In this document: piece after piece, positions 12,101-55,527 of the stretch
Layout: each line of letters begins with the position of its first letter
Numbering within the stretch: position 1 is the first letter of the stretch
Assembly: GCA_036279935.1 (NCBI GenBank)
Contig: DASURS010000253.1
Coordinates: forward strand, 95 to 64,094
From: Pyrinomonadaceae bacterium
Lineage (GTDB): Bacteria > Acidobacteriota > Blastocatellia > Pyrinomonadales > Pyrinomonadaceae
DNA length: 64,000 nt
Reading direction: 5' to 3'
Translations under genes and position numbers: made by a program
Notes under the pieces: generated by a model
What the model was told of the DNA's origin: nothing
Seen by the model: only the letters and a program-made list of their open reading frames with translations
The model's database searches: none

Positions 12101-12131
12101 TTAACCACAAGAAGGTGCCTTTTGTGGTTAA
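12101..12131. repeat. short CCACAAAAGG-family palindrome abutting the asnB stop codon
   Basis: TTAACCACAAGAAGGTGCCTTTTGTGGTTAA. On the minus strand the asnB stop reads TAA-CCACAAAAGGCAC. Confidence 0.85.
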
Positions 12132-14065
12132 TCGAGGAAGGTGCGGTGCCAGAGTTCGAGGCCTAAAAGCTGGAAAACCTGGAGGTTATAGTCCTCACGG
12201 CCGGAAAAGTTGGCGTCGAGAACGCGTCTGACCTCCTTCGGGCGGAACAGGCCGCGGCGTTTCACCACTTCCTCCGACAGCACGTCGTCAATCATCGGCC
12301 GCAAAGCCCCGCGCAGCCACGACCGAATGGGCGCGCCGAACCCGGCTTTCCGCCGCCAGATCACGTCCTTCGGTAACACGCCTTCCAGGGCCCGCTTGAG
12401 CACGTACTTGCGTTTCAACCCGTGAAGCTTGAGCCGGGGCGGCATGCGCGCGGCCATCTCGATCATCTCGCGGTTCAGAAACGGCACCCGCACCTCGAGG
12501 TTCGCGGCCATCGACGTCTTGTCCGTCGTCATGAGGTTCAGGCAGGGCAGGAACGTTTTCAAGTCGACGTAGAGCAGTCGATTCAGCGGCGCGGCATCGG
12601 CGACGCGCGCGAAGTAAGCGCGATGCGTGGCGTACGGGTCATAGTCGCGGGTGATGGCACGCCACTCGTCGGAATAAAGACGATGTTTCATTTCGTCAGT
12701 GAAGTAGGTTCCGTAGCCGAGATAGCGGTCTTCGAAGTCGAGCGCTGCGCTGCGCGCAAACTTCTTCGCGTTGCGCAGCGGCGCTGTCAGTTTGCCAGGC
12801 AGTCCGCCGGGTAAGGCACGGGCAACGCTCTTCATCAGCGGGCGACGCAGCATTTGCGGAACGGGGTCGAACGCGGACGCGATCTTCATCGCCATTTGCC
12901 GCGGGTAACCGGCGAACACTTCGTCGCCGCCCATGCCGGACAGCATGACGGTCAACGTCTCGCGTGCGGCGCGCGAGATGAGGTAACTCGGAATCGCCAT
13001 GTCGATCGGCGGCTCTTCCATGTGATAGACCAGCTTCGGCAGCAGGTCCGCGACGGACGGCTGCAACATGATCTCGTGATAGTCAGTCTGCAACTGCTCG
13101 TTGACGCGGCGGGCCCAGCGGACGTCGTCGGGAATGATGTCGTAGCGCAGGTCGTGGGTCTCGATGCCCGCGGTGTACGTGCTGATGCGCCGGCCGTCGA
13201 CGTGACGTTGCATGAGCGCGGTGATGCCCGACGAGTCAACGCCGCCGGAGAGAAACGAGCCGAGCGGAACGTCGGCCACCATCTCCATCTTTACCACTCT
13301 GTCGAGCGTCTCGAGCGTCCGGTCGCGCCACCACGCTTCGTTTCGTCCTTCTTCGATATGCGTGAACGAGACGTCCCACCATTGGCGCAGCTCGATCTGG
13401 TCGTTGCGGAAATGAAGCAGGTGGGCCGGCGGGACTGTCTTGATGCCGGCGAAGAGTGTATTGGGATCGGGCGACCACAGAAACGTCAGAAACTGGTGCA
13501 GCGCTTCCGAGTCGAGCGCCGGTCTGATTAATTGCGTCGCGAGAATGGCTTTGATTTCGGAGCCGAAGACAAACGCCGGTGGCGCGTCGTCGTTACCGGG
13601 AATGTAGGCGTAGTAGAGCGGCTTGATGCCGGCGTGATCGCGGGCGAGCGTCAGCATGCGCTCCTCGTTGTCCCAGACGGCGAAGGCGAACATGCCGTTT
13701 AGATGGTCCATCGCGTCCCAGCTCCACTCGACGATGGCTGCGAGCAGGACTTCAGCGTCGCTTTCAGTGCGAAACTCGTGGCCCAGCGCGCGCAGTTGTT
13801 GGCGCAGTTCGCGATAGTTGTAAATCTCGCCGTTGAATGTGAGGACGTAACGGCCGTTGTGCGAAAGCATCGGCTCGTGTCCGGCGGGGCTGGTGTCGAT
13901 GATTGCTAGACGGCGATGGCCCAGGCAGACGGTTCGGCCGTCGTCATCGATTGGCGGGGAGGTCCAAATGCCTTGATCGTCACGTCCACGGTGCTCGATC
14001 GCTTCAAGCATCCGCAAAATCCGTGGTTCCGGCTGGACGCTAATAATTCCGGCAATGCCGCACAT
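12128..14065 (-). CDS. asnB: asparagine synthase (glutamine-hydrolysing) family amidotransferase, polysaccharide-cluster paralogue 1
   Basis: Start set at MCGIAGII (catalytic Cys2; ATG at 14065). The ORF-track extension to 14164 overlaps the upstream gene. SGGVDSS PP-loop motif present. Confidence 0.9.
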   Translation of the reverse strand: MCGIAGIISVQPEPRILRMLEAIEHRGRDDQGIWTSPPIDDDGRTVCLGHRRLAIIDTSPAGHEPMLSHNGRYVLTFNGEIYNYRELRQQLRALGHEFRTESDAEVLLAAIVEWSWDAMDHLNGMFAFAVWDNEERMLTLARDHAGIKPLYYAYIPGNDDAPPAFVFGSEIKAILATQLIRPALDSEALHQFLTFLWSPDPNTLFAGIKTVPPAHLLHFRNDQIELRQWWDVSFTHIEEGRNEAWWRDRTLETLDRVVKMEMVADVPLGSFLSGGVDSSGITALMQRHVDGRRISTYTAGIETHDLRYDIIPDDVRWARRVNEQLQTDYHEIMLQPSVADLLPKLVYHMEEPPIDMAIPSYLISRAARETLTVMLSGMGGDEVFAGYPRQMAMKIASAFDPVPQMLRRPLMKSVARALPGGLPGKLTAPLRNAKKFARSAALDFEDRYLGYGTYFTDEMKHRLYSDEWRAITRDYDPYATHRAYFARVADAAPLNRLLYVDLKTFLPCLNLMTTDKTSMAANLEVRVPFLNREMIEMAARMPPRLKLHGLKRKYVLKRALEGVLPKDVIWRRKAGFGAPIRSWLRGALRPMIDDVLSEEVVKRRGLFRPKEVRRVLDANFSGREDYNLQVFQLLGLELWHRTFLD

Positions 14066-14066
14066 C

Positions 14067-14097
14067 TTAAATTTCAGATCTGAGATCTGAGATCTCA
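14067..14097. repeat. GAGATCT heptamer repeat (three overlapping AGATCT palindromes) inside the last codons of the oxidoreductase
   Basis: TTAAATTTCAGATCTGAGATCTGAGATCTCA. TCAGATCTGA and TGAGATCTCA are each perfect palindromes. It encodes the ...EISDLRSEI* tail. Confidence 0.85.
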
Positions 14098-16232
14098 AAA
14101 GGATGGTGCTCGCGGAGAGAATCGAGTACACGAAATGTGGCGCGAGTTGTGGCGGCGAGTTCATCCACGCTGATGGGCGCGGGTGTGCCTTGAAGAACGC
14201 ACGCGCAGACTTGTTTGACTTGTTCCTGCTGGCCCTTGTCCTGCGTCTTGACCGTCACCTGCTCTTCGCGCCCGTCTTTGTGAAGCGTTGCGCGGCGGAA
14301 GTCGTCGAGGACGAAACTACGCGACCCGCCGAATATCTCCAGCCGTTCCTTCGGCAGCGACTTGTCGCCTTCGCTCAGGTACGCGATGCAGCCGTTTGAG
14401 CCATCGGCAAAGCGCAACGTGATGAACACGGAATCGGCGTCTACTGCCTTCTCCGATTTCGCACTTACCGATTCCGCGAAAACGGAGATCGGCGCAGAGG
14501 CAGTCAAAAACTGCATCAGGTCGATGAAGTGACAGACTTCGCCGACGATGCGGCCGCCGCCTTCGATCGCGTTCTGCATCCAGTGCTCCTTCGGAATGCG
14601 GCCGGCATTGACGCGATAGAGCATCGACAGCGGCGAGTTGCGAGCGGCGGCGAAGAAATCTCTGGCGCGTTGGGTCAACGGCGAGAATCGTCGATTGAAC
14701 CCGACCATCAGGCGGCCCGTCGAATTGGCGGCAGCTTCAAGGACTTGATCGAGCTGATCGTCGTCGAGTGCGAGCGGTTTCTCGACGAAGACGTTCTTGT
14801 TTCGTTCGAGAGCTTTGCGTGCGAGATCGGCGTGCGAGTCGTTGCGCGTACCGATGACGACGAGATTGATCTGCGGATCGTCCAGCACGTCATCGGCGCT
14901 CGATACCGCATCCGCAAAGCCGAAACGCTTACCGACGTCGTGCGCTGAGATTCCCGACGCGGTCGCGATCGAGCGAAACTCGACGCCCTCGGATTTGAAG
15001 TGCGGCAGCAGCATCGCAGGAACGTAACCGCCCGCGCCGATGACGCCCAACGTTATCGCCTTGTCCGCGCGCGTCGCGTTCAACGGTACGCGCCGCACGA
15101 TCTCGCGATCCGGATCGTAATTGAGCAGCACGCCGAGATACGGTTCGCTCGACTCCGCGGAGATCAGGTTGTAGGCGCGCTCTGCATCGTCGATGCTGAA
15201 GCGGTGCGTCGTCAGTCGATCTACGTTGACGCGTTTGTCGCCGATGAGCTCGAGGAAGCTTTCGATGTTTCGTTTCTCCGTCCAGCGCACGTACGGGAGT
15301 GGATAATCTTGTCCCCGCTCTTCGTACTCGGGATCGTAACGTCCTGGTCCATACGACATCGAGATAACTAACTTCAGCTCGCGGCTGAAAAACGGTTGGC
15401 GTGGGATGTCGAGGCCCGTCATGCCGACGACGATCACGCGGCCTTTCAAGCGCGACACGCGCGCGGCGAGTTCGACGGGTTGATTTGAATCGGTGGCGGC
15501 GGTGATGAGCACCGCGTCCGCGCCGCGCCCGCGCGTCCATTTGTCTATCTCACTCGCCGCTTCTTCGCCGGAAACAACCGCGCGATCCGCGCCGAGTTCC
15601 ATCGCGAGTGAAACACGCGCCGGATCGAGATCGAGCCCGAAAACGCGACAGCCGTTTGCCTTCAGAAGCTGCACGGTAAGTTGGCCCACGAGCCCGAGGC
15701 CGATAACCACGACGGACTCGCCCAGCGTCGGCTCCGCCAGCCGCACGCCCTGCAACGCGATCGCGCCCAACGTGCCGAACGCGCCCGCTTCAAAACTCAC
15801 GTCCTCCGGCAGATGCACGCACAGGTTCTTCGGCACCGACAAAACTTCCGCGTGCGAAGCGAAGCCGACACCGGCGCAGGCGACGCGATCGCCGATGTGA
15901 AACTCCGTCACGTCGTCGGCCACCGCGGTGACGATGCCGGCCGCGCTGTAACCCAGTGACTGCGACGCCGCCATCTTGTCGCGCACGGACGCGAACGTGT
16001 TCAGCAACCCTTCACTTTTCACTTTCGCGACGACGGCTTTCACGAGGTCCGGGCGCTGTCGCGCTTCCTGAAGCAGTCCTTTGCTGACGAGTTCGACCGA
16101 CGCGCGCTCCGTTCCGGCGCTGATCAACGACGCGACCGTGCGGACCAGCACGCGCCCGCGCTGCAACGCAGGTACCGGCACTTCGCCGACAAACGGCTTA
16201 CCGGTTTTTCGATTCTGTAGCACCTGCTTCAT
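14067..16232 (-). CDS. bi-domain oxidoreductase (N-terminal Zn-ADH/MDR-like domain fused to a Gfo/Idh/MocA domain)
   Basis: N-terminal half has an MDR fold (GDRVACAG, VIGLGLVGQL). C-terminal half is Gfo/Idh/MocA-like (GVIGAGGYV, VFVEKPLA). Start set at MKQVLQNRK (ATG 16232), because the upstream codons run into a CACAAAAGG repeat. The stop is 1 nt from the asnB ATG. Confidence 0.8.
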   Translation of the reverse strand: MKQVLQNRKTGKPFVGEVPVPALQRGRVLVRTVASLISAGTERASVELVSKGLLQEARQRPDLVKAVVAKVKSEGLLNTFASVRDKMAASQSLGYSAAGIVTAVADDVTEFHIGDRVACAGVGFASHAEVLSVPKNLCVHLPEDVSFEAGAFGTLGAIALQGVRLAEPTLGESVVVIGLGLVGQLTVQLLKANGCRVFGLDLDPARVSLAMELGADRAVVSGEEAASEIDKWTRGRGADAVLITAATDSNQPVELAARVSRLKGRVIVVGMTGLDIPRQPFFSRELKLVISMSYGPGRYDPEYEERGQDYPLPYVRWTEKRNIESFLELIGDKRVNVDRLTTHRFSIDDAERAYNLISAESSEPYLGVLLNYDPDREIVRRVPLNATRADKAITLGVIGAGGYVPAMLLPHFKSEGVEFRSIATASGISAHDVGKRFGFADAVSSADDVLDDPQINLVVIGTRNDSHADLARKALERNKNVFVEKPLALDDDQLDQVLEAAANSTGRLMVGFNRRFSPLTQRARDFFAAARNSPLSMLYRVNAGRIPKEHWMQNAIEGGGRIVGEVCHFIDLMQFLTASAPISVFAESVSAKSEKAVDADSVFITLRFADGSNGCIAYLSEGDKSLPKERLEIFGGSRSFVLDDFRRATLHKDGREEQVTVKTQDKGQQEQVKQVCACVLQGTPAPISVDELAATTRATFRVLDSLREHHPFEISDLRSEI

Positions 16233-16262
16233 AGCCACAAAAAGGCACAAAAGTCACAAGGC
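16233..16262. repeat. single-arm CCACAAAAAGGCACAAAAG element between two co-directional genes
   Basis: Plus strand reads caTAGCCACAAAAAGGCACAAAAGTCACAAGG. The TAG head overlaps the reverse-complemented ATG of the oxidoreductase. Confidence 0.85.
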
Positions 16263-16270
16263 GGTAAGCT

Positions 16271-17449
16271 TTATTTGCCTTCAAGCACTTGTTCGATCAA
16301 GCCGCTGACCCATTCGGCGCGTGCGTCCCACGTTCCAGTTGCAACTGCCGCCTGACGTCTTTCAGAAGCCTCCGGATCGTCTTCGCGAAGCGCCTCTTCA
16401 ACAAGCGCGAGAAAGTCGTTGCGCGTCCGCGCGATTCGCAGCACGTCGCTCATCGCTTCGTACTCCGGCAGCGGCGAGATGACGACGGGCTTGCCGGTCG
16501 CGAGGTATTCACGCACCTTGATCGCCGAACCGTAACTCGTAAAAGACTGCTCAGTTTCCCACGGCAACACGCAAACGTCGAATCCAGCGGCGTAGCGAGG
16601 CAGGTCCGCATACGGCACGGGCGGCAGAAAGTGCGTGTTCGGCAGGTCTTCAATCTCCAGCCCGCGTGACTTGTTGCCGATGAAGATCCACTGCCATTGA
16701 GGCCGTTCGCGGTCGGCGCGTTTGATTAGCTCCTGGTCGACGAGCCAGGGCTCGATCGCTCCGAAGTAACCGAGCCGCGGGTGCGGAATGCGCGCGATTT
16801 CCGGCGCGACGCTCATGTTGCCGTTGCCGACGTGCCGCCAGTGATCGAAGTCAACGCCTTGTTCGAGCAGGTATGACCGATCGCGTCCGCGCGTCGCTTC
16901 GTCGAAGAGTTTTCGTCCGGAGTAGAAGACGAGGTCGGCGGCGTCGATCGCTTGCTCGTGAAGCTTGCGAATCAGCGCCGGATCAGTCGCGTGGTCCATC
17001 GTGTTCGCATCATACTTGTCGGACACTTGATAGACCACTGCCGATTCGTCCAGCGTGCCGATCATCTCGGCGGCCGTCGGAATCGCGATCCAGAGAATCG
17101 GTTTCGACAGTCCACGGTTGTGAGCCAGCCTGCCGATCTGCGCGCTGATGGCGCGTCGATTGATCGAGCGTGCAGCGGAGCTGCCGAAGAACGGCAGACT
17201 CGCGGGCGAAACGACGGTAATGCCGTCCTCCGTTTCGCGTGCGAGTTTTGAGTAGCTGCCGAGCTTGCGTTTGATACGTGGAAGCAGGTCCTTGTGGGCC
17301 AGGTTCGGCAGGCCCATCGAGATCGAATTGACGAAGATCACCTTGTTTCCCGCGCGCGCAAACTTGCGCATCAGGTGGGCTTTGGAGTGCGGATGGTGAT
17401 ACCACCAGTCTTCCCCGCCAAAGCAAATTATCGAGCGATTGAGCAACAT
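16271..17449 (-). CDS. glycosyltransferase (GT-B fold, GT1/GT4-like)
   Basis: 392 aa. C-terminal ...EYLATGKPVVISPLPEY resembles the GT-B donor-binding region. N-terminus ICFGGEDWWYHHPHS is typical of a subgroup of EPS glycosyltransferases. Cluster context supports the call. Confidence 0.65.
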   Translation of the reverse strand: MLLNRSIICFGGEDWWYHHPHSKAHLMRKFARAGNKVIFVNSISMGLPNLAHKDLLPRIKRKLGSYSKLARETEDGITVVSPASLPFFGSSAARSINRRAISAQIGRLAHNRGLSKPILWIAIPTAAEMIGTLDESAVVYQVSDKYDANTMDHATDPALIRKLHEQAIDAADLVFYSGRKLFDEATRGRDRSYLLEQGVDFDHWRHVGNGNMSVAPEIARIPHPRLGYFGAIEPWLVDQELIKRADRERPQWQWIFIGNKSRGLEIEDLPNTHFLPPVPYADLPRYAAGFDVCVLPWETEQSFTSYGSAIKVREYLATGKPVVISPLPEYEAMSDVLRIARTRNDFLALVEEALREDDPEASERRQAAVATGTWDARAEWVSGLIEQVLEGK

Positions 17450-17465
17450 TCGGAAAGCTGGAGAG

Positions 17466-20625: not shown

Positions 20626-20752
20626 AAGTTTCCCGCAAAGGCGCAAAGGCGCAAAGACGTAAGACAATGACCCAAGACGCAACGGGCAAGACGCAGAGAG
20701 CGCCACTTGCCTGTCTAAAAACTTAGCGCCTTTGCGCCTTTGCGGGAAACTT
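20626..20752. repeat. perfect 27-bp inverted repeat (GCGCAAAGG words) flanking a 73-nt loop
   Basis: AAGTTTCCCGCAAAGGCGCAAAGGCGC ... GCGCCTTTGCGCCTTTGCGGGAAACTT. The loop contains about four AAGACG words and an inner GGCAAG/CTTGCC stem. Confidence 0.95.
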
Positions 20753-20754: not shown

Positions 20755-21567
20755 TCACTTCTTCGCAGTAACGATCACGTTCCAACCGATTCGCTGTCGC
20801 AGACGTTCGAACATGTTTTCGGAAACGAGCGGGGATAGAAACCGTAGCTCATCTCGGGTTAACTGTTCGACGTCAATCACGACGTTGCGAAACGAACTGA
20901 AGAGCGCGCGCGTTTCGGCGCGGCTGTAGACTTTTACGAGCGGCCGCGCATCGTGATCGCTGTGCTCGACGACGCGGCTCATTATGTCTTCCGCGGAGCG
21001 TCCGCGTAAAAACTCCAGGCCCAGCACGCCGCGACGGAGGACGATCTCGAGCCAGTAGTTCAACGAGTTGCGATGATAAAGCATTACCTTCGCGATTCCG
21101 CCGGGGCGTAGGACGCGATGCACTTCGCGAATCGCGCCGGCCGTGTCGGGCGTGTGGTGCAGGACGCCGTTCGAGTAGACGACGTCGAACGTTTCCGAGC
21201 GAAACGGCAGGCGCTCGCCGTCGGAGATCATAAACGAGCCGGGCGCGCCGTAAAGCCGGAAACGGTGGCGGGTGATCTCGACTGAGCGCGGCGTCAGATC
21301 GATGCCGATGCAACGCGCGCCGCCGCGAGCGAATTGCAGCAGGTCGGTCCCCATGCCGCAGCCGACCTCGAGCAGACGCCGGCCGCGAAACTTATCAAAC
21401 TCCATCAGGCGTGGCATCCACGGCGCGTATTCCGTGTAGCGGTGTCGCTCGACGGAATCGAAAAACTCGCGCGTCCCGAGCTCGTGCTCGCGCTCGTAAT
21501 CCGCGCCGCACGGATCCTGGCTCCACTGCTCGCGCGCCCGAAGTTTTTCCTCAGCCAGAGTGCTCAT
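20755..21567 (-). CDS. class I SAM-dependent methyltransferase
   Basis: LLEVGCGMGTDLLQFARGG motif I and GVLHHTPD. Start set at MSTLAEEK (ATG 21567). Confidence 0.85.
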   Translation of the reverse strand: MSTLAEEKLRAREQWSQDPCGADYEREHELGTREFFDSVERHRYTEYAPWMPRLMEFDKFRGRRLLEVGCGMGTDLLQFARGGARCIGIDLTPRSVEITRHRFRLYGAPGSFMISDGERLPFRSETFDVVYSNGVLHHTPDTAGAIREVHRVLRPGGIAKVMLYHRNSLNYWLEIVLRRGVLGLEFLRGRSAEDIMSRVVEHSDHDARPLVKVYSRAETRALFSSFRNVVIDVEQLTRDELRFLSPLVSENMFERLRQRIGWNVIVTAKK

Positions 21568-24471: not shown

Positions 24472-24581
24472 ATATCATTTTCCGTTTGTCGTTTGTCATT
24501 TCGACTTGTTGTTCCAGTAACGCCGTGGGCGAAAACCAAATGAGAAATGACAAACGTCAAATGGCAAACGGAAAATGGTTA
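24468..24581. repeat. intergenic hairpin with CCATTTTCC/GTTTGTC-word arms, same family as 6657-6895
   Basis: CCATATATCATTTTCCGTTTGTCGTTTGTCATTTC ... GAGAAATGACAAACGTCAAATGGCAAACGGAAAATGG. On the minus strand the asnB-2 stop reads TAA-CCATTTTCCGTTTGCC. Confidence 0.9.
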
Positions 24582-29363: not shown

Positions 29364-29364
29364 T

Positions 29365-29466
29365 AGGTCTTCAGTCTTTGGCCTTAGGTCTTTGGTTTGG
29401 TTCCAAGCCTAAGACCGAGGACGCAAGTCCAAAGACCGAAGACCCAAAACCAAAGGCCCAAGGCCG
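29365..29466. repeat. intergenic hairpin with AAGACC/CCAAAG-word arms
   Basis: GGTCTTCAGTCTTTGGCCTTAGGTCTTTGGTTTGG ... CCAAAGACCGAAGACCCAAAACCAAAGGCCCAAGGCC. GGTCTTCAGTCTTTGG pairs with CCAAAGACCGAAGACC, and alternative registers are possible. Confidence 0.88.
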
Positions 29467-30820: not shown

Positions 30821-32389
30821 GTGACGCTATCGACAAGTGTCAAGCAAATCATATATATGGGTGTGGTGCCCAACGTTTCCGTAAGGCTCATTCGCGGCCT
30901 TAGCCTGCTCGACGCCACAACCATCGTCGTCGGATCCATGATCGGGTCCGGCATCTTCATAACTTCCGCGGAATCGTCGCGGCTGGTCGGCTCGCCGGGC
31001 TGGTTGCTGATGGCTTGGGCGCTGGCAGGCGTGCTGACGATCACGGGCGCGCTTTGTTGCGCGGAACTCGCCGCGATGTGGCCGCGCGCGGGTGGTCAGT
31101 ACGTGTTTTTGCGCGAGGCTTACGGGCCGGCGACCGGGTTTCTCTTCGGCTGGGGACTGTTTCTGATCATTCAAACGGGGACGATCGCCGCCGTTGCCGT
31201 CGCCTTCGCAAACTTCAGCGGCGTTCTTGTCCATGCGATCTCCGCCGAGCGGTTCCTGATTCCGCAGTTCGTCGTCATCAAGCCATTCACGATCGGCGGA
31301 CTGTCGTTCAACGGCTACGGGCTGAGTCTATCAACGCAACAACTCACCGCGATCCTCATGATCCTGTTCCTGACGTTCGTCAACACCCGTGGGCTGCAAA
31401 CCGGGAAAGTCATTCAAAACACGTTCACGTTCACGAAGACCGCCGCACTGCTCGGGCTGATCCTCGTCGGGTTGCTGCTGGGTTGGAACAGTTTGAGCGC
31501 GGCGTACACATCGTCATGGTGGGCGTCGTGGGAAAACGGCTGGCGTCCGACGGCGGCGCAGGTCTGGTTCGAACCGTCGACGCACGGACTGCTCGTGCTG
31601 GCGCTGGTGATGATGCTTGGGCGAGCGATGGTTGGGCCACTGTTTGCGCAGTCAGCCTGGAACAACGTGACGTTCACGGCGGGTGAAGTCCGAGATCCCG
31701 GAAAAAACCTGCCGCGCGCGTTGTTGATCGGTTGCGGGCTGGTCGTGACGTTCTATCTGTTCGCGAACCTCGCGTACGTCGTGACGCTGCCGCTGGCGGG
31801 CATTCAAAACGCGCCGCAGAATCGGGTCGCAACAGCGGTGATGCAGGCGGTGCTTGGACCGAGCGGGACGATCCTGATGGCCCTCGCGATCATGATCTCG
31901 ACGTTCGGATGCAACAATGGGCTGATACTCGCCGGCGCGCGCGTTTACTACGCGATGGCGCGAGACGGGCTGTTCTTCAAACGAGTCGACAGCGTCAACA
32001 CGCATCACGTGCCGGCGGTGGCCCTGGTCGCCCAGGGGATTTGGGCGTCGCTGCTGGTGCTGCCGCGGACGGTGACTGTGAATCCGCAGACCGGCGCGTA
32101 CACGTTCGGCAACGTCTACACGCAACTGCTCGAATACATCGTCTCCGCGGACCTGATCTTTTACGCGTTGATGGTTGGGGCGGTGATCGTGATGCGACGC
32201 AAGGCGCCGGAGCTCGAGCGACCGTATCGAACGTTCGGCTATCCGATCGTGCCGCTGATCTACATCGTGCTAGCGGTCTTGTTCGTCATCGACCTTGCGA
32301 TCCTTGCGCCGTCGACTTCCGGCATTGGTTACTTGCTGGTGTTCACCGGAATCCCGATCTACTTCGTCTGGCGCCGCAGAAAAGGTTAG
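30821..32389 (+). CDS. APC-superfamily amino acid permease
   Basis: About 12 TM segments. GSMIGSGIF motif near the N-terminus. The start may be the ATG at 30857 rather than the GTG at 30821. Confidence 0.85.
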   Translation: MTLSTSVKQIIYMGVVPNVSVRLIRGLSLLDATTIVVGSMIGSGIFITSAESSRLVGSPGWLLMAWALAGVLTITGALCCAELAAMWPRAGGQYVFLREAYGPATGFLFGWGLFLIIQTGTIAAVAVAFANFSGVLVHAISAERFLIPQFVVIKPFTIGGLSFNGYGLSLSTQQLTAILMILFLTFVNTRGLQTGKVIQNTFTFTKTAALLGLILVGLLLGWNSLSAAYTSSWWASWENGWRPTAAQVWFEPSTHGLLVLALVMMLGRAMVGPLFAQSAWNNVTFTAGEVRDPGKNLPRALLIGCGLVVTFYLFANLAYVVTLPLAGIQNAPQNRVATAVMQAVLGPSGTILMALAIMISTFGCNNGLILAGARVYYAMARDGLFFKRVDSVNTHHVPAVALVAQGIWASLLVLPRTVTVNPQTGAYTFGNVYTQLLEYIVSADLIFYALMVGAVIVMRRKAPELERPYRTFGYPIVPLIYIVLAVLFVIDLAILAPSTSGIGYLLVFTGIPIYFVWRRRKG

Positions 32390-32477
32390 CCACAAAAAGC
32401 ACAAAAAGACACAAAAAGGATGTGATGAGTTGTTGTCGAAAACTACGCCATTCTTTTGTGCCTTTTTGTGGCTACTA
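32387..32477. repeat. CCACAAAAAG-family hairpin between convergent genes; both stop codons are part of the arms
   Basis: TAGCCACAAAAAGCACAAAAAGACACAAAAAGG ... CTTTTGTGCCTTTTTGTGGCTA. The permease stops at TAG 32387-32389. The polymerase stops at TAG on the minus strand at 32477-32475. Confidence 0.92.
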
Positions 32478-37269: not shown

Positions 37270-38727
37270 TTAATCCGCGGCGCGGTTTGTCATCGGTACG
37301 CCGGCATGCACGATCGCGGGTTCGTGTGGTCTCAATAATTCGTAGCCTTCCGAGCGGGCGACGTACGTCGCTGCCGTCAGATCGCCGGTGACGTTCAATG
37401 TCGTGCGGCACATGTCGAGTATGCGATCGACGCCCAAAATGATCGCGATCAGCGCGGGATTGACTCCGATCGTTACCAGCACGCCAATGATGAAGGGAAT
37501 CGAGCCCGACGGAATGCCGGCCGTCCCAATGCCGCCCAGGATCGCGAGATAGACCACCATCAACTGCTGGCCCAACGTCAGATCGACGCCGGCGAGCTGG
37601 GCCAGGAAGAGCACCGTCACGCCTTCGTACAAGGCGGTGCCGTTTTGGTTCGCAGTTGCGCCGACAGTCAACACGAAGCTGTTGATCTCCTGCGGCACGC
37701 CGAGGTTCTGTTCGGACACACGCAACGCCGTCGGCAGCGTCGCGTTTGATGACGACGTGGAGAAAGCGGTCAGGATCACGGTCTTGATGCGACGGAAAAA
37801 CTCGAGCGGCGAGATGCGCGACAGGAAGTAAACCGACAACGAGTAGACGCCGAACATGTGCAGCGCGAGGCCGATCAGAACAGTCGCCATGAACCACCCG
37901 AGCGCTTGCAGCAGATCGAGCCCGAACCGTGCCGTGTTATTGAACAGCAGGCACGCGACGGCAAACGGCGCGAACTTCATGATCATCTCGATGATCTTCG
38001 CCGTGACTTCGTAAACGCCTTCGAGCACGCGCAGCAGCGGCGCGGTCACAGTCACAGGAAGCAGCGTGATCGCGACGCCGATCATCAGCGCGAAGAACAT
38101 CAGGTGCAGCATGTTCGCGTCTTCTTTGCCGCCGACGGCGAAGAAGGGATTTCGCGGAACGATCGTTTCAACGACCGACATCAACGGCGTCGAAGTCGCA
38201 CCGGCTGCTTTCTGCGCGTCTGCAACTCTGGAACTCGCGTCGCCGGCGAAGCGTTGCTGTAGCGCCGCGGACGTCGCCGGATCGATCCTGGTGCCCGGCC
38301 TGATCGTGTTGGCGAGCGTGAGACCGATGGCGACCGAGATCGCCGAGATCACCAAACAATAGGCAAATGACTTGATCCCGACGCGCCCGAGTTTTCGAAC
38401 ATCGCCGATGCCAGCGACGCCGACGACCAGCGACGCAAACACCAGCGGCACGACGATCATCAGCAGCAGACGCAGAAACAGTTGGCCCACCGGCTGCGTG
38501 ATGTTGTCGACTACCCAGACGACTCTGGCGTTGTCGCCGCCCCACTGCTTGTTCGCGCCGATGCCCGCGAGGACGCCGACGAGAAGTCCAAGCAGGATCT
38601 TCGTGTGAAGCGCCATGCCCTTCGGCTTGTCAGGCGTCTCTTCGTCGAGATCGGTACCGACTTCGCGTTCAAATTCGTCGCGGTGAAGTCGATCCGGGTT
38701 GCGGCCATTGTCTGTTTGTTCGGGCAT
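37270..38727 (-). CDS. dicarboxylate/amino acid:cation symporter (DAACS, GltP/GltT-like)
   Basis: SSSNATLP, TVGATANQNGTALYEG and NVTGDL motifs. Confidence 0.88.
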   Translation of the reverse strand: MPEQTDNGRNPDRLHRDEFEREVGTDLDEETPDKPKGMALHTKILLGLLVGVLAGIGANKQWGGDNARVVWVVDNITQPVGQLFLRLLLMIVVPLVFASLVVGVAGIGDVRKLGRVGIKSFAYCLVISAISVAIGLTLANTIRPGTRIDPATSAALQQRFAGDASSRVADAQKAAGATSTPLMSVVETIVPRNPFFAVGGKEDANMLHLMFFALMIGVAITLLPVTVTAPLLRVLEGVYEVTAKIIEMIMKFAPFAVACLLFNNTARFGLDLLQALGWFMATVLIGLALHMFGVYSLSVYFLSRISPLEFFRRIKTVILTAFSTSSSNATLPTALRVSEQNLGVPQEINSFVLTVGATANQNGTALYEGVTVLFLAQLAGVDLTLGQQLMVVYLAILGGIGTAGIPSGSIPFIIGVLVTIGVNPALIAIILGVDRILDMCRTTLNVTGDLTAATYVARSEGYELLRPHEPAIVHAGVPMTNRAAD

Positions 38728-38753
38728 GTTTTATTTGTGCCTTTTTGTGGTTA
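38728..38753. repeat. single-arm TAA-CCACAAAAAGGCACAAATAAAAC element filling the nadK-stop to transporter-ATG gap
   Basis: Minus strand reads TAACCACAAAAAGGCACAAATAAAAC followed immediately by ATG (38727). Confidence 0.85.
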
Positions 38754-46645: not shown

Positions 46646-46682
46646 GCGGGCGGATTTCAAAGGTCCGCCCGCAGTCGTTTTT
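46646..46682 (+). terminator. rho-independent terminator after the protease gene
   Basis: GCGGGCGGA-TTTCAAAGG-TCCGCCCGC stem-loop followed by AGTCGTTTTT. Confidence 0.75.
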
Positions 46683-46838: not shown

Positions 46839-46850
46839 GACTTTTGTGGT

Positions 46851-48970: not shown

Positions 48971-48977
48971 TGCACTG

Positions 48978-49193
48978 AAAAAGCCGTCCACGATCTGAGA
49001 CCGTGGACGGCTTTCGGTAGACTGTTGGGATTGGCCTGATGGCTACTGTGTGCAACTTCCAGAAAGGAGGAGCACTATGCAGTGAGACGACCGAACCAGA
49101 ATCCTAACAAGTTAGCTGGTTCAGAGGTCAGGCCGCAGCCACCTCACTGTGATAAGAACTCATAAATTTTAGAATCACCTCCTTTCCAGTGTT
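48978..49193 (-). ncRNA. candidate about 215-nt small RNA (or small-ORF transcript) with its own promoter and terminator
   Basis: Bounded by TTGACG-17-TATGAT (49229-49201) and the terminator at 48982-49012. Three nested helices on this strand: GAAAGGAGG/CCTCCTTTC (49178-49186 with 49062-49070), CAGTGAG/CTCACTG (49143-49149 with 49080-49086), GAACCAG/CTGGTTC (49116-49122 with 49093-49099). Lower GC than the surroundings. Contains an 11-codon ORF (MSSYHSEVAAA, 49163-49128). Confidence 0.5.
48982..49012. terminator. bidirectional intrinsic terminator hairpin (11-bp stem); the better T-tract is on the minus strand
   Basis: AGCCGTCCACG-ATCTGAGAC-CGTGGACGGCT. The plus strand continues TTCGG. The minus strand continues TTTTTC. 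Confidence 0.8.
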
Positions 49194-49200
49194 GGCGGAA

Positions 49201-49229
49201 ATCATAAAGTACAACTCAGTGACCGTCAA
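49201..49229 (-). promoter_or_regulatory. sigma70 promoter candidate TTGACG-17-TATGAT, preceded by an A-rich tract
   Basis: Minus strand reads ATAAAAAGCGG-TTGACG-GTCACTGAGTTGTACTT-TATGAT. It starts 15 nt downstream of the hutI stop. Confidence 0.6.
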
Positions 49230-49243
49230 CCGCTTTTTATAAT

Positions 49244-50512: not shown

Positions 50513-51905
50513 AAATCGTGATGCCGATTGCGTTCGCCAGTAAGACGACGCCAACGATCTTCAGCGCAAATAACAGCGTATCTTCGACTTCCGTAATCGG
50601 AACGATCGCGAAACGGATGTAGACGAGCGTGACGAGAAAACCGGACGCACACGCGAGTTTGAGCCACCACGGCGAATTGACGCCAAGCGCCTTCATCCCA
50701 AACAGCGGTATGGCAAACAGAACCAGGTACGTCAGCGCGTAAAAAACGCCGCCCGCATTGTCGATCAACTGAAACGCTTCCTGCGCTTTCACACCCATGT
50801 TGCTGAGCACAGCGAGCACCATCGTCACCGCGCCCACAAACAGGATCGAGTTGACTGGCGTTTTGTACTTCGAATGCAACCGGCTGAACCATGACGGTAA
50901 CAAGCGATCCCATCCGGCGACCATCGGCAGACGTGTGTTCCCGGCAAAGTAAATACTCATCAGCGCGATCGATCTGACTGTGATGCCGAGAATCGCGATC
51001 GAACCGATTGCGCCGACCCAGCCCAACGCCCGAAAGCCGATCGAAAGCGTCTGCGGGATTGGTCCGATCACATCGACCTGATCGCGCGGGACAAACGCGA
51101 GCACGGAGCTGGTCCCAAGTATGAACATGAGCGCGATGATGGGCGACGCGATCACCACGGAGCGTCCGATGTTGCGTGCCGGCGAACGGGTTTCGCCGGC
51201 AAGGATGGCGATGTATTCGAAACCCGTCAGCGCGCCCAGCGCGAGTTTGCTCCAGACGTTGATGTTGTACTCAGAGAACGTCGGAAACTGAAGAACAAAG
51301 GGCCGGTATTCTCCTCCCTTGGCGGCGGAGAAGACGAAGAACGGCAACAGGATCAGCATCGCGAACGTTCCCAGGTGCACCAGTGCGCCGACGTTGTGAA
51401 TCCACTTACCGAGACCCAAACCGCGCATCGCTGCGACGACCATTCCGATCACAAGCACTAGACTGATCGCCAGAATCCACGTCTTGCTGTCTTTCATCAG
51501 TGCCGCTGACGGACCAATCGAATAGGAGATGTTTGTAGTGACGACCAATCCGATGCCCGCCAGAATCGAGATGGCAAAGACCCACAGGTTCCACCCGACC
51601 ATGAACGCGATAAATTCGTTGAAAGCGAGTTTGGCCCACTGATAAAGACCGCCCTCGAGCGGCATCAGACGGTTGAGAAAGATCACGGCGGCGGCAAGCG
51701 GCAGGTAGAACGTGACGATGGCGAGGATCCAGAAAAAGTTTTGCTCGTTGCCTAACCTCGCCGCCCAACCTACCCAGAACGTGCCCACCACGAACACGAC
51801 CTGCGAGAGCACGAGGTCGAACAGTCCGAGTTCCTTTTTGAAGACGGCGCTGCGGGCTTCGACTTCGCGTTCGATCTCGGCGACGTTTGGGGTCAGGTCA
51901 GCCAT
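50490..51905 (-). CDS. APC-superfamily amino acid transporter
   Basis: 471 aa, about 12 TM segments, typical APC topology. Immediately upstream of hutI. Confidence 0.8.
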
Positions 51906-52564
51906 TGTTTCACGTCCGTTCGCATTTGCTGGACGATCTCGTGTGCGGCGTCGTAGGTCCTGAACTTCACGGAACCCGCGCGTTTGCGCAACTGCTGCTC
52001 GTAATCGGCGACGCGCGCCGGCGGATAGAACTCGTCACGGGTTCCGGCGAGGTGAAAGACGTCGAAAGGCGCTTCGCGATACAAGCCGCTCGTTTCCCAG
52101 TCGCTGGGAAGGCCGCCGCAGATGCCGATCACGCCGCGCAAGCGGTCCGGGTGCGTGAAAGCGAAACGATAGTTGAGCGCACACGATTGCGAGAAGCCCA
52201 GCAGAAACACGCGCGACGGATCGGCGACGCCTTCTTCAGTCAACGTTTGAATCAGATCGATTAGCGCCTGGTGGTGAATGGCAACCGATTCTTCACTGCG
52301 ATAACTGGTGATCCAGCCGAAGCCGTAACGCAGCGGTCCACCTGGTTCGCGCGGCTCTTTCATGTGCTGGTGAAATCCCTGCAACGAAGCGATCGCGAAG
52401 GTGTCGGGCGACATCAGTTGCGCCTCGCGCATGATCTGCTCTTTGAACGCGCCGTACCCGTGCAAGGCGATCAACAGCGGCGCCGGTGAGCTCGAAGCAG
52501 GGCGGAGATCGTAGTAAAGATTGATGCGCGCCTGAAGAGAGTGATCCTTGATGAGCGTGCTCAT
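51893..52564 (-). CDS. alpha/beta hydrolase (phospholipase/carboxylesterase family)
   Basis: LLIALHGYGA oxyanion region, nucleophile elbow GFSQS, C-terminal ...DAAHEI His. 223 aa. Confidence 0.75.
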   Translation of the reverse strand: MSTLIKDHSLQARINLYYDLRPASSSPAPLLIALHGYGAFKEQIMREAQLMSPDTFAIASLQGFHQHMKEPREPGGPLRYGFGWITSYRSEESVAIHHQALIDLIQTLTEEGVADPSRVFLLGFSQSCALNYRFAFTHPDRLRGVIGICGGLPSDWETSGLYREAPFDVFHLAGTRDEFYPPARVADYEQQLRKRAGSVKFRTYDAAHEIVQQMRTDVKQWLT

Positions 52565-52606
52565 TAGAGCTTCATTAGGTGAATTTCGGTGCCGATGTCA
52601 ATAACG

Positions 52607-52641
52607 AAAAGGCGTCTTGTGTCTTTTGTGCCTTTTTATGG
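52607..52641. repeat. single-arm CACAAAAGG-family element (complement orientation) in a divergent intergenic region
   Basis: AAAAGGCGTCTTGTGTCTTTTGTGCCTTTTTATGG. Its reverse complement is CCATAAAAAGGCACAAAAGACACAAGACG. Confidence 0.8.
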
Positions 52642-52689
52642 CAAGATGGCGAGCAGATTGCAGCCAACTTTTCCGGAGAGGTGTTAGTG

Positions 52690-53007
52690 ATGAAATTCCC
52701 AGGCGGTTTGAACATTCAACAGATGATGAAGCAGGCGCAGCAGATGCAGGAGAAGATGCAGAAAGAGATGGAAGAATTGCGCGTCGAAGCTTCAGCGGGT
52801 GGCGGCGTCGTGACGGTGCAGATGAAGGGCAATCATGAAATGGTCGCGCTGAAAGTCGATCCCGAGGCAGTGAAAGACGGCGACGTCGAAATGCTCCAGG
52901 ATTTGATCGTGGCTGCTGTCAACGAAGCCAACCGGAAAGTCGATGAAGCGATGAAAGGCAAGCTCGGTGGGATGTTGCCGCCGGGGCTGGGCGGATTGTT
53001 TGGCTGA
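52690..53007 (+). CDS. ybaB: YbaB/EbfC family nucleoid-associated protein
   Basis: Start set at [25 protein letters not shown]... (GGAGAGG SD upstream). Classic YbaB N-terminus. Followed by recR. Confidence 0.9.
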
Positions 53008-53009
53008 AA

Positions 53010-53624
53010 ATGCTGGAATACGCGGAGCCAGTAACTAAACTCATCGACGAACTGAAACGTTTGCCTAGTATCGGGCAGAAGTCTGCGCAACGGCTTGCGT
53101 TTCACTTGATGCGTACGCCCGAGAATGATCTGGAACGGTTGATTGCGGCGATGCGCGAGGTGAAGCAGCGCATCATTCTCTGTTCAGTTTGCAACAATCT
53201 TACGGAAACTGATCCGTGCCGGTTTTGTTCGTCGCCGGCGAGGGACCATTCGGTGATCTGCGTCGTTGAAGAGCCGCACAGTCTTGTTGCGGTTGAGAAG
53301 ACGCGCAGCTTCAAGGGTGTCTACCACGTGTTGCACGGCAGCTTGTCGCCGATTCGGCACATTGGGCCAAGTGAGCTCCATCTCGCGAACCTGTTGCCGC
53401 GATTGAAGCCGGAGAACAACGAAGGCGTGGCTGTGACGGAAGTGATACTTGCGACCAACCCGACGACTGAAGGTGAAGCGACGGCGAACTACATCAGCCG
53501 CCTGCTCAAGCCGCTGGGGTTGAGAGTGACTCGGATCGCGATGGGAATGCCGGTGGGAAGCGATCTCGAATACGTTGATGAAGTGACGATGGACAAGGCG
53601 CTGTCCAACCGTCATGAGATTTAA
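53010..53624 (+). CDS. recR: recombination protein RecR
   Basis: LPSIGQKSAQRLAFHL helix-hairpin-helix, CSVCNNLTETDPCRFC zinc finger, Toprim region VVEEPHSL. Confidence 0.93.
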   Translation: MLEYAEPVTKLIDELKRLPSIGQKSAQRLAFHLMRTPENDLERLIAAMREVKQRIILCSVCNNLTETDPCRFCSSPARDHSVICVVEEPHSLVAVEKTRSFKGVYHVLHGSLSPIRHIGPSELHLANLLPRLKPENNEGVAVTEVILATNPTTEGEATANYISRLLKPLGLRVTRIAMGMPVGSDLEYVDEVTMDKALSNRHEI

Positions 53625-53630
53625 AAATAA

Positions 53631-54239
53631 TTAAAACCGGACGTGCTCGGCGGCGACGCCGTCCTTGCACTCAACACAGTCCTCATCTTCCTCGTACAAG
53701 CGAACGTCGAAATCGACCAGCGACTTGATCGGCACGTCCTCGATTTCGCTCGGCGCCGTGTTGAACCTGACGATCGTCCCGCAACCGATAATCTTCGCAC
53801 CGACTTGCTTCACAAGCTCGACGGTTTCGTCGAGCGCGTTGCCGCTGCGGACGATGTCGTCGACGATGATGCAGGGATTGACTTCGCCCTGGTTCACATA
53901 CTGGCGAAACATGCGCTCGCCTTTTTCCTGTTCCGCCCAATAAATCTGTTCCGCATTGAGCGCATCGCGAACGCCAAAAGCGACCGGTATGCCGCCCGAG
54001 CTCGGACTGATGATCGAGATTTTGGGTAACTGACTGGAGATGTCCTTTTCGAGCCGGAACTTCCGGCTGAGCGCGACCGCGAGCACGCGCGCGGTATCGT
54101 AGTAGCGAAACGCCAATGGCATTTGAAAATAGTGGGGCGAGTGCTTGCCGTTCGGGTATACGAAATGGCCCTCGCGAAACGCGCCGGTGCGCTTCAGTAT
54201 CTGCATTATGGCGTCTTGGGAAGGAATCAGCTCGACCAT
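53631..54239 (-). CDS. phosphoribosyltransferase family protein (PyrE-like type I PRTase)
   Basis: PRPP-binding loop CIIVDDIVRSGNAL. N-terminus GAFREGHFVYPNGKHSPHYF resembles orotate PRTase-like proteins. Confidence 0.7.
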   Translation of the reverse strand: MVELIPSQDAIMQILKRTGAFREGHFVYPNGKHSPHYFQMPLAFRYYDTARVLAVALSRKFRLEKDISSQLPKISIISPSSGGIPVAFGVRDALNAEQIYWAEQEKGERMFRQYVNQGEVNPCIIVDDIVRSGNALDETVELVKQVGAKIIGCGTIVRFNTAPSEIEDVPIKSLVDFDVRLYEEDEDCVECKDGVAAEHVRF

Positions 54240-54371
54240 TGGGTGCTCCAGAATTGTGTTCGATTAGCGCCGCAGAGCATACATCAATCGCGCCCTGCCG
54301 CGAAATCCGTGCCGCACGAGAATTTATTTGACATTCTTCATTTGTCATTTCTAAGATTCGAGTTCAAAACT

Positions 54372-55385
54372 ATGGCAGCTACCGACGCAACAACGGGCAA
54401 AGCGGACTCGATCGCAGCCGCAGCGGCACCCGTCCCCAAGCGAATCACGAACGCCCAAACGGTTTGCAACGAGAAGAACGAAAAGGGAAAGCTCTGTAAC
54501 GGGCACCTGAAACAGTTGCGCACCGCGGGCGAGCCGGCGGAGATTCATCTGCGCGGCGACGACGTGCTTTTCAAATGCCAGACGTGCGGGACGCTCTACA
54601 TGGGACCGCCGCTGGGTCACGTGCGCGATCCGAACAAGCAGGTTCGTTTCGTCGAGGCGGAGTTGACCGCGTTGCTGCAAGCTGCCGGCGGCACGCTGCC
54701 GGTTATCAAGAAGAACGAACGCGGCGTGTACGTGATGATCGAGACTGAGGCCGCCGGCGGCCACGGTCACGCGCCCGCGAAAGCCGCTGCGCCGGCTGCG
54801 GCGACGCCGGCTGCACCCAAACCCGCTGCACCGAAACCCGCCGCGCCGGCAGCCGCTGAGCCTGCAGCCGCCGCGCCCGCAGCGCCAAAACCGGCAGCGC
54901 CTGCCGCACCCGCTGCGCCTGCCGAACACAAGACGGCCGGCGCGAATCCGAATCGACAGTTGTTCAAGCGTTCGACGTATGCGGGCGTTGCGGACACTGG
55001 TCCAGTCGCGGGTGAGACGTTCGAACAGAAGGTCGCGCGGCTCAAAGCACTTTCAGCGGCCGCGAAGCAACGTGCGGAAGAAGGTGGTGGACCAGAGCCG
55101 GCTGCTGCAGCACCTGCACATGCCCCAGCCGCGGTCGAAACAGCACCTGCGGCTGAGCCACCGTCTGCGCCTGCCAGTCCTGCACCCGCTGCTGCTACAC
55201 CTGCACCCGCTGCAAGTGCCGGCGAACACAAACCGACCGGCAACGCGGATCGCACGTTAATGAAACGTTCAACTTATTGTGGAGTTGTTGATACCGGTCC
55301 GGTTCCCGGCGAGACTTTCGAACAGAAAGTCGCTCGACTGGCGGCCCTTTCCGCAGCCGCCAAGCAACGCTCCGAAGGCGGTTAA
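54372..55385 (+). CDS. hypothetical protein: N-terminal Cys4/His zinc-ribbon-like region, Ala/Pro low-complexity linkers, and two copies of an about 55 aa module
   Basis: Start set at MAATDATTGK (ATG 54372). CNEKNEKGKLCNGH...CQTCG. Module 1 is EHKTAGANPNRQLFKRSTYAGVADTGPVAGETFEQKVARLKALSAAAKQRAEEGG. Module 2 is EHKPTGNADRTLMKRSTYCGVVDTGPVPGETFEQKVARLAALSAAAKQRSEGG. Confidence 0.6.
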   Translation: MAATDATTGKADSIAAAAAPVPKRITNAQTVCNEKNEKGKLCNGHLKQLRTAGEPAEIHLRGDDVLFKCQTCGTLYMGPPLGHVRDPNKQVRFVEAELTALLQAAGGTLPVIKKNERGVYVMIETEAAGGHGHAPAKAAAPAAATPAAPKPAAPKPAAPAAAEPAAAAPAAPKPAAPAAPAAPAEHKTAGANPNRQLFKRSTYAGVADTGPVAGETFEQKVARLKALSAAAKQRAEEGGGPEPAAAAPAHAPAAVETAPAAEPPSAPASPAPAAATPAPAASAGEHKPTGNADRTLMKRSTYCGVVDTGPVPGETFEQKVARLAALSAAAKQRSEGG

Positions 55386-55527
55386 CCACAAAAGGCACAA
55401 AAGAAAGAACCAGTAAAAAACAAAGAACAAGTTTCCAAAGCACAAAGAACCCGATTACCTGAGCACATCTCTCTTGTGCCTTTTGTGCCTTTTGTGCCTT
55501 TTGTGTCTTTTGTGCCGTTTGTGGTTA
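55383..55527. repeat. CCACAAAAGG-family hairpin between convergent genes; both stop codons lie in the arms and the right arm has 5 word copies
   Basis: TAACCACAAAAGGCACAAAAG ... CTTGTGCCTTTTGTGCCTTTTGTGCCTTTTGTGTCTTTTGTGCCGTTTGTGGTTA. Plus-strand gene stops at TAA 55383-55385. Minus-strand gene stops at TAA (55527-55525). Confidence 0.92.

Follow-up and report, generated by a model that had tools for sequence, protein, structure and literature searches.

In a 64,000-nt stretch of a Pyrinomonadaceae bacterium (phylum Acidobacteriota; contig DASURS010000253.1, assembly GCA_036279935.1), hereafter the window, we identified a family of short intergenic repeats, termed arms, whose first three bases can double as the stop codon of the neighbouring gene. 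The arm reads T-A-R-CCACAAAA(A)GGCAC, and the T-A-R triplet is referred to below as its head. About a quarter of the copies lend this triplet to an adjacent gene as its stop codon, and the arms are one flavour of a large class of intergenic arrays in Pyrinomonadaceae. We favour the interpretation that they are tolerated, self-propagating or homogenised intergenic DNA.

Reading of the sequence disclosed nine clear arms and one degenerate arm in the window, in agreement with the initial annotation, which had counted at least 10 members. The repeat family is real: the pattern CCACAAAAAGGCAC, with up to two mismatches, matched the window six times against 0.41 expected, and none of 100 shuffled sequences reached six. 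An arm consists of approximately three tandem units of 9–10 nt with the unit GCACAAAAAG, the outermost being written T-A-R-CCACAAAAAG. Single arms are A-rich without complementary T runs and show no self-complementarity (z = −0.1 to −1.3 for solo arms). The units contain no internal ORF, and an Rfam scan of the window at the gathering threshold gave no match for the arms, tRNA-Ser alone being found.

Five window genes stop on an arm's own TAA or TAG, namely asnB, the amino-acid permease gene, nadK, the unnamed gene 54123–55385 and the GHMP-kinase gene (Table 1). The asnB stop (TAA, 12128–12130) is part of the stem of a short hairpin (minimum free energy −12.2 kcal/mol). The proposal that arms supply stop codons stood for these five genes and called for a small correction at PolA, to which it had also been applied; the PolA stop (32475–32477) lies one codon upstream of the arm TAG, giving a tandem TAG-TAG-CCAC. 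As annotated, nadK ends on the arm TAA and the ATG of the next gene, encoding a dicarboxylate symporter, follows 23 nt past it. Stop codons directly followed by CCA were found in 7 of the 48 provisional window genes, compared with 0.85 expected (p = 2e-5); TAA is the commonest stop (25/48). Pfam searches identified the neighbouring genes as full-length and encoding AsnB, a fused oxidoreductase, a methyltransferase, an amino-acid permease, PolA, the dicarboxylate symporter and GHMP kinase.

To place the family in other genomes, CCACAAAAAGGCACAAA was scanned in one genome per species, which gave at least 117 loci and 149 exact copies among the matches listed; the counts in this paragraph and the next refer to these listed matches unless another sample is named, and labels such as L014, L050 and L170 denote loci from other genomes. 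Ninety of the loci belong to Acidobacteriota, mostly Pyrinomonadaceae metagenome-assembled genomes, and the others to Kiritimatiellia, Verrucomicrobiota, Planctomycetota, Geobacter relatives and further groups. TAG precedes 79 of the 149 copies, G occupies position −1 in 139 of 143, and position −4 is T in 49%, A in 31% and G in 10% (15/143). The resulting consensus is t-T-A-G-CCACAAAAAG-GCACAAAAAG-CACAAAA, beyond which the sequences of the copies are unrelated.

ORFs of at least 100 codons end at just 29 of the 79 TAG heads. Since the other heads, approximately 50, stop no long ORF, the TAG triplet belongs to the element, which bears out the suggestion that the elements bring their own stop: TAG is in the arm consensus whether it is used or not. 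The stop-codon register, tabulated in these other genomes, proved genuine and sharp. Stops of ORFs of at least 120 codons fell at the head itself (offset 0) in 27 cases, compared with 6, 3 and 1 cases at 1, 2 and 3 nt upstream, and 19 ORFs read into the arm. An in-frame stop at the head therefore ended 27 of the 46 ORFs that reached it, versus the one-third expected under random phase (p = 4e-4). Solo arms supplied stops at least as often as paired ones (16 vs. 11). In a second sample, approximately 1.3 Mb of ascertained loci of related sequence, a TAR head was present in 120 of 214 copies, 50 of which are long-ORF stops. Insertion-site selection at stop codons, the other explanation initially offered for the register, is possible.

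The arms do not stand alone. A window survey combining Tandem Repeats Finder, a listing of every intergenic gap and an inverted-repeat survey revealed that nearly all gaps longer than ~80 nt contain arrays of 7–10-nt units, mostly as inverted pairs flanking a unique loop. Among the units are CCATTTT, GATTGCC, GCTTTGT, CGCAAAGG, GGTCTTYGG and TTTGTTC. Members of the class are accordingly short tandem arrays, solo or paired in inverse orientation around an unrelated local loop, and for the class, 82 of the 204 sides have the outer stem base placed between −4 and +6 nt from the stop of a long ORF. Possession of the TAR head differs between families within the 1.3 Mb. The CC[AG]CGGAT family has the same head, TAR preceding 30 of its 137 copies, and the CGCAAAGG and GATTGCC families never showed it. 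The CCATTTT family had been credited with this head as well; the copies at 6655 and 24581 do follow TAG and TAA, respectively, yet these two are the only such cases among the 14 CCATTTTCC copies in the sample.

Table 1. Arms (upper nine rows) and other tandem-unit arrays (lower eight rows) in the window.
Feature	Position	Strand	Remarks
Short hairpin, CCACAAAAGG family	12101–12131	−	Reads TAA-CCACAAAAGGCAC-CTTCTTGTGGTTA; arm 12115–12130, its head the asnB stop, plus short partner
Solo arm TAG-CCACAAAAAGGCACAAAAGTCACAAGG	16232–16261	+	Unstructured, z = −1.3
Solo arm TAA-CCACAAAGAGGCACAAAAATCACAAAAGGCACAAA	21567–21604	+	Head T overlaps methyltransferase-gene ATG (21565–21567, − strand)
5' arm of inverted pair	32387–32419	+	TAG 32387–32389 is the stop of the amino-acid permease gene 30821–32389
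Partner arm TAG-CCACAAAAAGGCACAAAAG	32453–32474	−	Own TAG at 32472–32474
Solo arm TAA-CCACAAAAAGGCACAAA	38734–38753	−	TAA 38751–38753 is the nadK stop; arm unstructured
Degenerate arm TTG-CCATAAAAAGGCACAAAAGACACAAG	52616–52644	−	Divergent intergenic region; head TTG-CCAT does not read as a stop codon
Arm of two units	55383–55403	+	TAA 55383–55385 is the stop of unnamed gene 54123–55385
Partner arm, ~5.6 units of GGCACAAAA	55473–55527	−	TAA 55525–55527 is the stop of the GHMP-kinase gene 55525–56535
TAG-CCATTTTCC array	6655–6891		~127-nt module in tandem duplicate, closed by inverted arm 6861–6891
GATTGCC/GGCAATC inverted arrays	8568–8688
GCTTTGT/ACAAAGC inverted arrays	10270–10403
CGCAAAGG/CCTTTGCG inverted arrays	20626–20752		31-bp stem with 30 matched
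CATTTTCCGTTTGT inverted pair	24476–24581		Fills gap from stop (TAA 24579–24581, − strand) to next ATG
GGTCTTYGG/CCRAAGACC arrays	29366–29466		Fill stop-to-ATG gap
GATTGCC/GGCAATC arrays	56534–56752		~17 heptamers, from upstream gene's TGA to GHMP-kinase ATG
TTTGTTC/ACAAAG inverted pair	58036–58121		Divergent intergenic region

Both inverted pairs and single arms had been described, and both are common: among the matches listed, 80 of 138 assessable copies have an inverted partner and 58 (42%) are solo. In total, 61 inverted pairs with outward-facing heads were recorded. Paired elements fold strongly (z ~ −4), as illustrated in the window by the pair at the permease and PolA genes (−31.5 kcal/mol, z = −4.2) and the pair at the GHMP-kinase gene (−43.3 kcal/mol, z = −4.1), while solo arms are unstructured. 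The two arms of a pair resemble each other more than arms of different pairs do (edit distance 6.6 vs. 8.55; p < 2e-4). Between its two ends, a pair shows no correlation in the head T and A (positions −3 and −2), and variant heads are mirrored, not directly repeated (CAG...CTG, TTAGG...CCTAA). Apart from stray units, the loops of the 36 pairs compared have nothing in common, which shows that elements are not copied as wholes. Arms 0.6–3.5 kb apart or enclosing a gene-sized segment were absent from the 1.3 Mb, which is not a whole genome. Hairpins lie in 82 co-directional, 36 convergent and 16 divergent gaps.

Comparison of orthologous sites revealed rapid gain, loss and family replacement, including alleles without any element. 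The same pair is present in L065 and L089 (~81% gene identity), where one arm matches at 30 of 30 bases and the loops cannot be aligned, and in L110 and L018 the head TAG is the stop of the same gene; other orthologous gaps hold a different array family or no element. The most informative series is the convergent gap downstream of the GHMP-kinase gene (window 55386–55524), compared across 80 orthologous loci. In the element-free alleles L171, L147 and L158, the stops of the kinase gene and its convergent neighbour overlap in a palindrome, TTAA or CTAG, with zero intergenic DNA. L170, the window and L148 contain a CACAAAAAG hairpin, the two heads of which furnish both stops. Further alleles at this site have arrays of CC[AG]CGGAT and of CCACAGAT, headed likewise by TAR-CC[AG]C. 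In L146, L178, L138 and L139 the gene has its own stop, followed by a spacer and then the head, and in L130 (...TVVTTD*), L132 and L143 the ORF runs into the arm and terminates there. An empty allele (L147), a different element (L150) and the CACAAAAAG hairpin (L170) are separated by a gene divergence of just 8–12%.

The gap upstream of the kinase and a third gap undergo the same turnover, the outermost unit often staying in place at the boundary as the inner units vary in number. No consistent direct repeat was found across filled alleles, and a target-site duplication longer than TA was discarded. An association between the element and asnB (the gene ends ...D-TAR-CCACAAAAGGCAC in the window, L091 and L109) was judged to be within chance in view of the way in which the loci were ascertained, at ~0.2 by rough estimate.

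These alleles also bear on whether the elements have trimmed gene ends, as the initial annotation had proposed. Protein ends are usually unchanged and occasionally rebuilt by one to six codons. NadK of L050 ends at the same residue as the window NadK, Pfam profiles extend to the ends of AsnB and PolA, and the convergent partner of the GHMP kinase keeps ...EGG* throughout, in filled and empty alleles alike; the ends of all these proteins are ancestral, contrary to trimming. The idea holds in part for the GHMP kinase, whose tail varies by one or two residues, ending in ...TES* among distant relatives and in ...TE[KST][FYH]* among those that are closer, and the three lineages given above read into the arm.

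A second fixed register, with start codons, had been suggested by two window arms, and here the outcome was different. The overlaps themselves were confirmed: each head shares its T with the CAT complementary to a minus-strand ATG, at 16230–16232 for the oxidoreductase gene 14067–16232 and at 21565–21567 for the methyltransferase gene. Among the 149 listed copies, the starts of long ORFs lie 3–37 nt from the other side of the arm and are spread evenly with no spike, so that a start-codon register is not supported; since there is no preferred distance between arm and start, the overlap seen twice in the window is not a property of the family. An apparent abutment in L107 was a false start by ortholog comparison. 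The lack of a Shine-Dalgarno (SD) sequence next to single arms had been taken as a hint of a part in translation re-initiation or coupling. It is uninformative because SD motifs are rare in this genome: only ~8 of 48 window starts have any SD-like tetramer upstream. Mimicry of a sigma-54 promoter or an SD sequence by the arm was dismissed on spacing, by eye from the sequence.

Terminator signals are similarly sparse, and the genome seems to rely little on SD or intrinsic-terminator signals. A pattern search found as many intrinsic terminators in the window as in its shuffles, and a scan with a terminator consensus left the arm pairs themselves unflagged, local matches being minor inner hairpins (38722–38742 and 55463–55479). 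An intrinsic terminator has a short GC-rich stem, a loop of 3–8 nt and then a U tract; the arm pairs have loops of 8–176 nt, and their U runs lie inside the 3' arm, not after it. A reading of the arms as canonical terminators was rejected, as matches are not enriched and families with the T-rich arm first have the wrong polarity. The sole convincing canonical terminators in the window are A-tract/stem/T-tract hairpins at 48980–49014 and at 46646–46672, the latter just before the tRNA-Ser gene.

Taken together, we consider it moderately probable that the arms belong to a class of arrays whose head doubles as a stop codon, with the register arising by tolerance, the arms homogenised by copying and any role in RNA secondary. 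In this scheme the arm would contribute its own terminal triplet, TAG or TAA, and arrays would come to lie flush against coding sequence, both of which are seen in our data. A copy would be tolerated if its head matches or replaces the stop of the gene in frame, leaving the protein the same or altered by a codon or two, and copies that let the ORF continue into the stop-free, A-rich arm would mostly be purged. Arrays change by slippage of units, loss and replacement by other families, as the orthologous sites show. The uniformity of arms across loci and species would derive from copying between copies, through gene conversion or through template switching that starts from the head they share, and not from transposition of arm, loop and arm together. 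Whole-element transposition was rejected, given the unrelated loops and the lack of long elements in the 1.3 Mb. Several observations weigh against this scheme. Perfect conservation of 27–30 nt of an arm between species could equally mean a sequence-specific function, for example, the binding of a protein; different lineages have hairpins again and again in the same intergenic positions, which could mean selection for structure; the filled and empty alleles at the GHMP-kinase site also fit an insertion that duplicates TA; the related-sequence set is a collection of ascertained loci and not a complete genome; and the copying mechanism is one that we infer.

A functional RNA would explain the same positions differently. 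Paired elements would be bidirectional terminators, hairpins protecting the 3' end or brakes on the terminating ribosome, placed at the stop purposely. Their strong folding agrees with this, as do their greater frequency in convergent than in divergent gaps and the recurrence of hairpins of different families at the same sites. The 3' arm of the CCACAAAAAG family reads GUGCC-UUUUU, which is terminator-like, and since canonical terminators are no commoner than in shuffles, something else may end transcripts. There is also a parallel in repetitive extragenic palindromes (REPs), which stall ribosomes when they lie no more than 15 nt from a stop (Liang 2015, as cited in PMC12306157). Despite these points we regard such a role as unlikely to account for the family. 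Mismatches on the sense strand comprise 46 G.U and 50 A.C, and without an excess of G.U, selection on pairing at the RNA level was rejected. In addition, 42% of copies are solo and unstructured; most sister families have the T-rich arm first, which precludes a U-rich 3' side; there are alleles with overlapping stops and no element; some elements occupy divergent gaps; and the arm sequence itself is conserved beyond what pairing alone needs. Because of the wobble counts, the unpaired copies, the T-first families, the element-free alleles and the arm-sequence conservation, tolerated DNA is favoured over an RNA role. The hairpin form is not essential at any single site, and a role as an RNA 3'-end structure, itself unproven, would be secondary.

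Mobility offers another account of the register, in which the element is a miniature transposon, or its solo end, moved by a TA-targeting transposase of the IS630/Tc1 type. IS630 elements prefer TA targets, and insertion in the TA of a TAA or TAG would regenerate an in-frame stop of TA plus G or A, making the stop codon a safe landing site. The alleles at the GHMP-kinase site fit exactly: the empty L147 (...AAC TAA CCGCC) and L171 (...TAT TAA CCGCC) correspond to the filled L170 (...AGT TA[G CCAC...GTGGC TA]A CCGCC) and window (...TAC TA[A CCAC...GTGGT TA]A CCGCC). In 80% of listed copies, T or A occupies position −4, which suggests a W-TA-W target, and the heads point outward as in terminal inverted repeats. 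A target-site duplication of TA would fit these flanks; however, TA is self-complementary, the variant heads are mirrored and do not form direct repeats, and the two ends of a pair are uncorrelated at −3 and −2. The unrelated loops of the 36 pairs, the 58 solo copies of 138 and the lack of any arm pair around a gene-sized segment in the 1.3 Mb weigh against mobility, and excision cannot restore two intact ORFs in several filled alleles, e.g., L159 and window 32387. We therefore consider transposition of this kind improbable.

Translational coupling has still less in its favour and we view it as very unlikely. Here, the stem would reach from the upstream stop to the downstream start, and the terminating ribosome would melt the base of the stem and so free a start codon that lacks an SD. 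This RNA-unfolding model of coupling is established in other systems (PMC12548453) and suits a genome with few SD motifs. Four of the six co-directional window gaps with a pair were spanned from stop to ATG (8556–8704, 24472–24578, 29364–29466 and 56536–56752), and the GGCAATCGGCA array adjoins the GHMP-kinase ATG in at least 12 orthologs, in which the ...AATCGGCA-ATG junction is kept. On the other hand, the CCACAAAAAG family has no preferred distance to starts, the three window arms beside starts are solo and unstructured, no wobble signature is seen in the RNA, abutting arrays in orthologs may be merely inherited, and with loops of 36–150 nt, coupling by distance is improbable. An origin of the pattern by chance, or from the base composition of A-rich DNA between genes next to TAA and TAG stops, to which the prevalence of TAA in the window might lend some colour, is already refuted: the head, the register and the copy-number enrichment far exceed chance, and the element recurs in independent assemblies.

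A broader proposal concerns the class as a whole. The arrays could represent an undescribed, phylum-spanning prokaryotic 'foldback' class of intergenic DNA, with more than 10 families of tandem 7–10-nt units in most gaps, embedding stops and sometimes starts. Maintained by a dedicated copying or binding machinery, it would be what chiefly marks the limits of genes (for 3'-end formation and/or SD-independent coupling) where canonical terminators and SD sequences are lacking. Arrays were found in Acidobacteriota and in Kiritimatiellia, Verrucomicrobiota, Planctomycetota and Geobacter-type genomes, and we put this idea forward as a doubtful one. If the arrays are functional, they would amount to a means of delimiting genes that has gone unstudied, in an abundant phylum of soil with apparently few canonical terminators and few SD sites. 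The most valuable by-products of the analysis are the recognition of the wider tandem-unit array class and the GHMP-kinase allele series. The latter shows a single site as empty, as filled, as replaced and as invaded by an ORF, at 8–20% divergence, a rare natural record of repeat gain and loss and of the recruitment or rebuilding of stop codons. There is a practical aspect as well. Gene ends and starts can be mis-called in Pyrinomonadaceae metagenome-assembled genomes, as an ORF can continue into an arm and the start of a long ORF can lie within one (e.g., 16250 and 21585 in the window), and these low-complexity inverted repeats are likely break points in short-read assemblies.

Several further observations were made on the arms and arrays. 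A degenerate copy had been annotated near 52607–52641 and is indeed present as the arm 52616–52644, in which the head is mutated from CCAC to CCAT, so that the plus strand reads TTTTT-ATG-G; the mutated head may hold the true ATG of the plus-strand gene provisionally begun at 52579. A 9-nt piece at 46841–46849 is too short to evaluate. Outside Acidobacteriota, GGCACAAAAA arrays (L014, L040, L043, L052, L061, L069, L071, L125, etc.) mostly have the head TGG or TTG, not TAG, with Kiritimatiellia as the exception, where a TAG head was also seen. At window 6655–6971, each ~127-nt module has a CCATTTTCC array at its start and a GC-rich hairpin inside, and the whole folds at −88 kcal/mol. The ~17 GCAATCG heptamers at 56630–56749 have a higher-order period of 36 nt, and the last unit adjoins the GHMP-kinase ATG. 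A self-complementary AAATTCG (TTCGAA) array at 1576–1608 comes directly after the TAA of gene 1607–2743, inside the long-ORF extension of the next gene.

The hairpin GAACAAGTCAGGAAGAGGGGCTTGCCCCC recurs in L099, L109, L113, L140 and L150, often after tandem GAACAAAATGAAGTCAG units. Window 59189–59378 and its orthologs share a promoter-like core, CAATTTGAA-N17-GGTAAAGTAC, and a long conserved leader upstream of gene 59379–60047; in most orthologs, arrays end in GTGG directly ahead of this core. Synteny with window 55.5–59.5 kb, at ~75% identity, was seen in L049. The viral-contig scan of the window returned eight single matches.

The principle of a repeat supplying a stop codon is already known, since REP termini, stop-proximal REPs of Escherichia coli and the register of MIRUs have all been described. 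A 2013 study described REP termini that provide TAG stops (Di Nocera, De Gregorio & Rocco, PMC3733652). GTAG REPs and their dimers, called BIMEs, are high-copy and intergenic, occur mainly in co-directional and convergent gaps, in many cases no more than 20 nt from the upstream ORF, and often form inverted pairs 20–100 bp apart; each REP is a 20–40-bp palindrome with an unpaired GTAG or CGTC tag, linked to RAYT transposases (PMC3733652). The arms are likewise high-copy and extragenic, mainly in co-directional and convergent gaps near the end of the upstream ORF, and often in inverted pairs. In contrast to REPs, a single arm is not palindromic and is built of ~three tandem units, and its head, T/A-T-A-G, lacks the GTAG tag (G at −4 in 10%) and in the window is often TAA. 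The initial designation 'REP-like' was thus abandoned on structure and tag. True GTAG-tagged palindromes (TGTAGGGGCGGCCCTCCGTGGCCGCCC) exist in L053, L082, L086, L094 and L187 and represent a conventional REP family separate from the arrays. In E. coli, ribosomes were shown experimentally to stall at REPs that lie no more than 15 nt from a stop codon (Liang, Rudd & Deutscher 2015, in the account given by PMC12306157). The paired elements resemble them in having a stable stem that starts at the stop codon or a few nucleotides past it, and differ in being known from sequence, with 42% of copies unpaired.

Mycobacterial interspersed repetitive units (MIRUs), as summarised in PMC12548453, are 40–100-bp units that insert in register with start codons, with a small ORF coupled to the downstream start by a 4-nt overlap and with minimal effect on their neighbours. 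Arms and MIRUs are both intergenic repeats in a fixed register with translation signals; the arms differ by their lack of an ORF, their 9–10-nt units and a register with the stop codon and none with the start. [quoted passage not shown] The arm is accordingly neither a REP by its defining structure nor a MITE by a shared interior. A search of the available literature for the arm sequence strings and for repeats in Pyrinomonadaceae and Blastocatellia found nothing relevant. The short tandemly repeated repetitive (STRR) sequences of cyanobacteria comprise families whose tandem units are of about heptamer size and occur in intergenic DNA alone. They share with our arrays the organisation as tandem short-unit intergenic families, in a different phylum and with different units, and we know of no stop-codon head or inverted-pair rule in them. 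The closest structural analogue of the arm arrays, with no homology implied, is the eukaryotic Foldback transposon, a kilobase-scale, transposase-associated element with inverted arms of short tandem repeats, variable in arm length, and a middle that is variable or absent.

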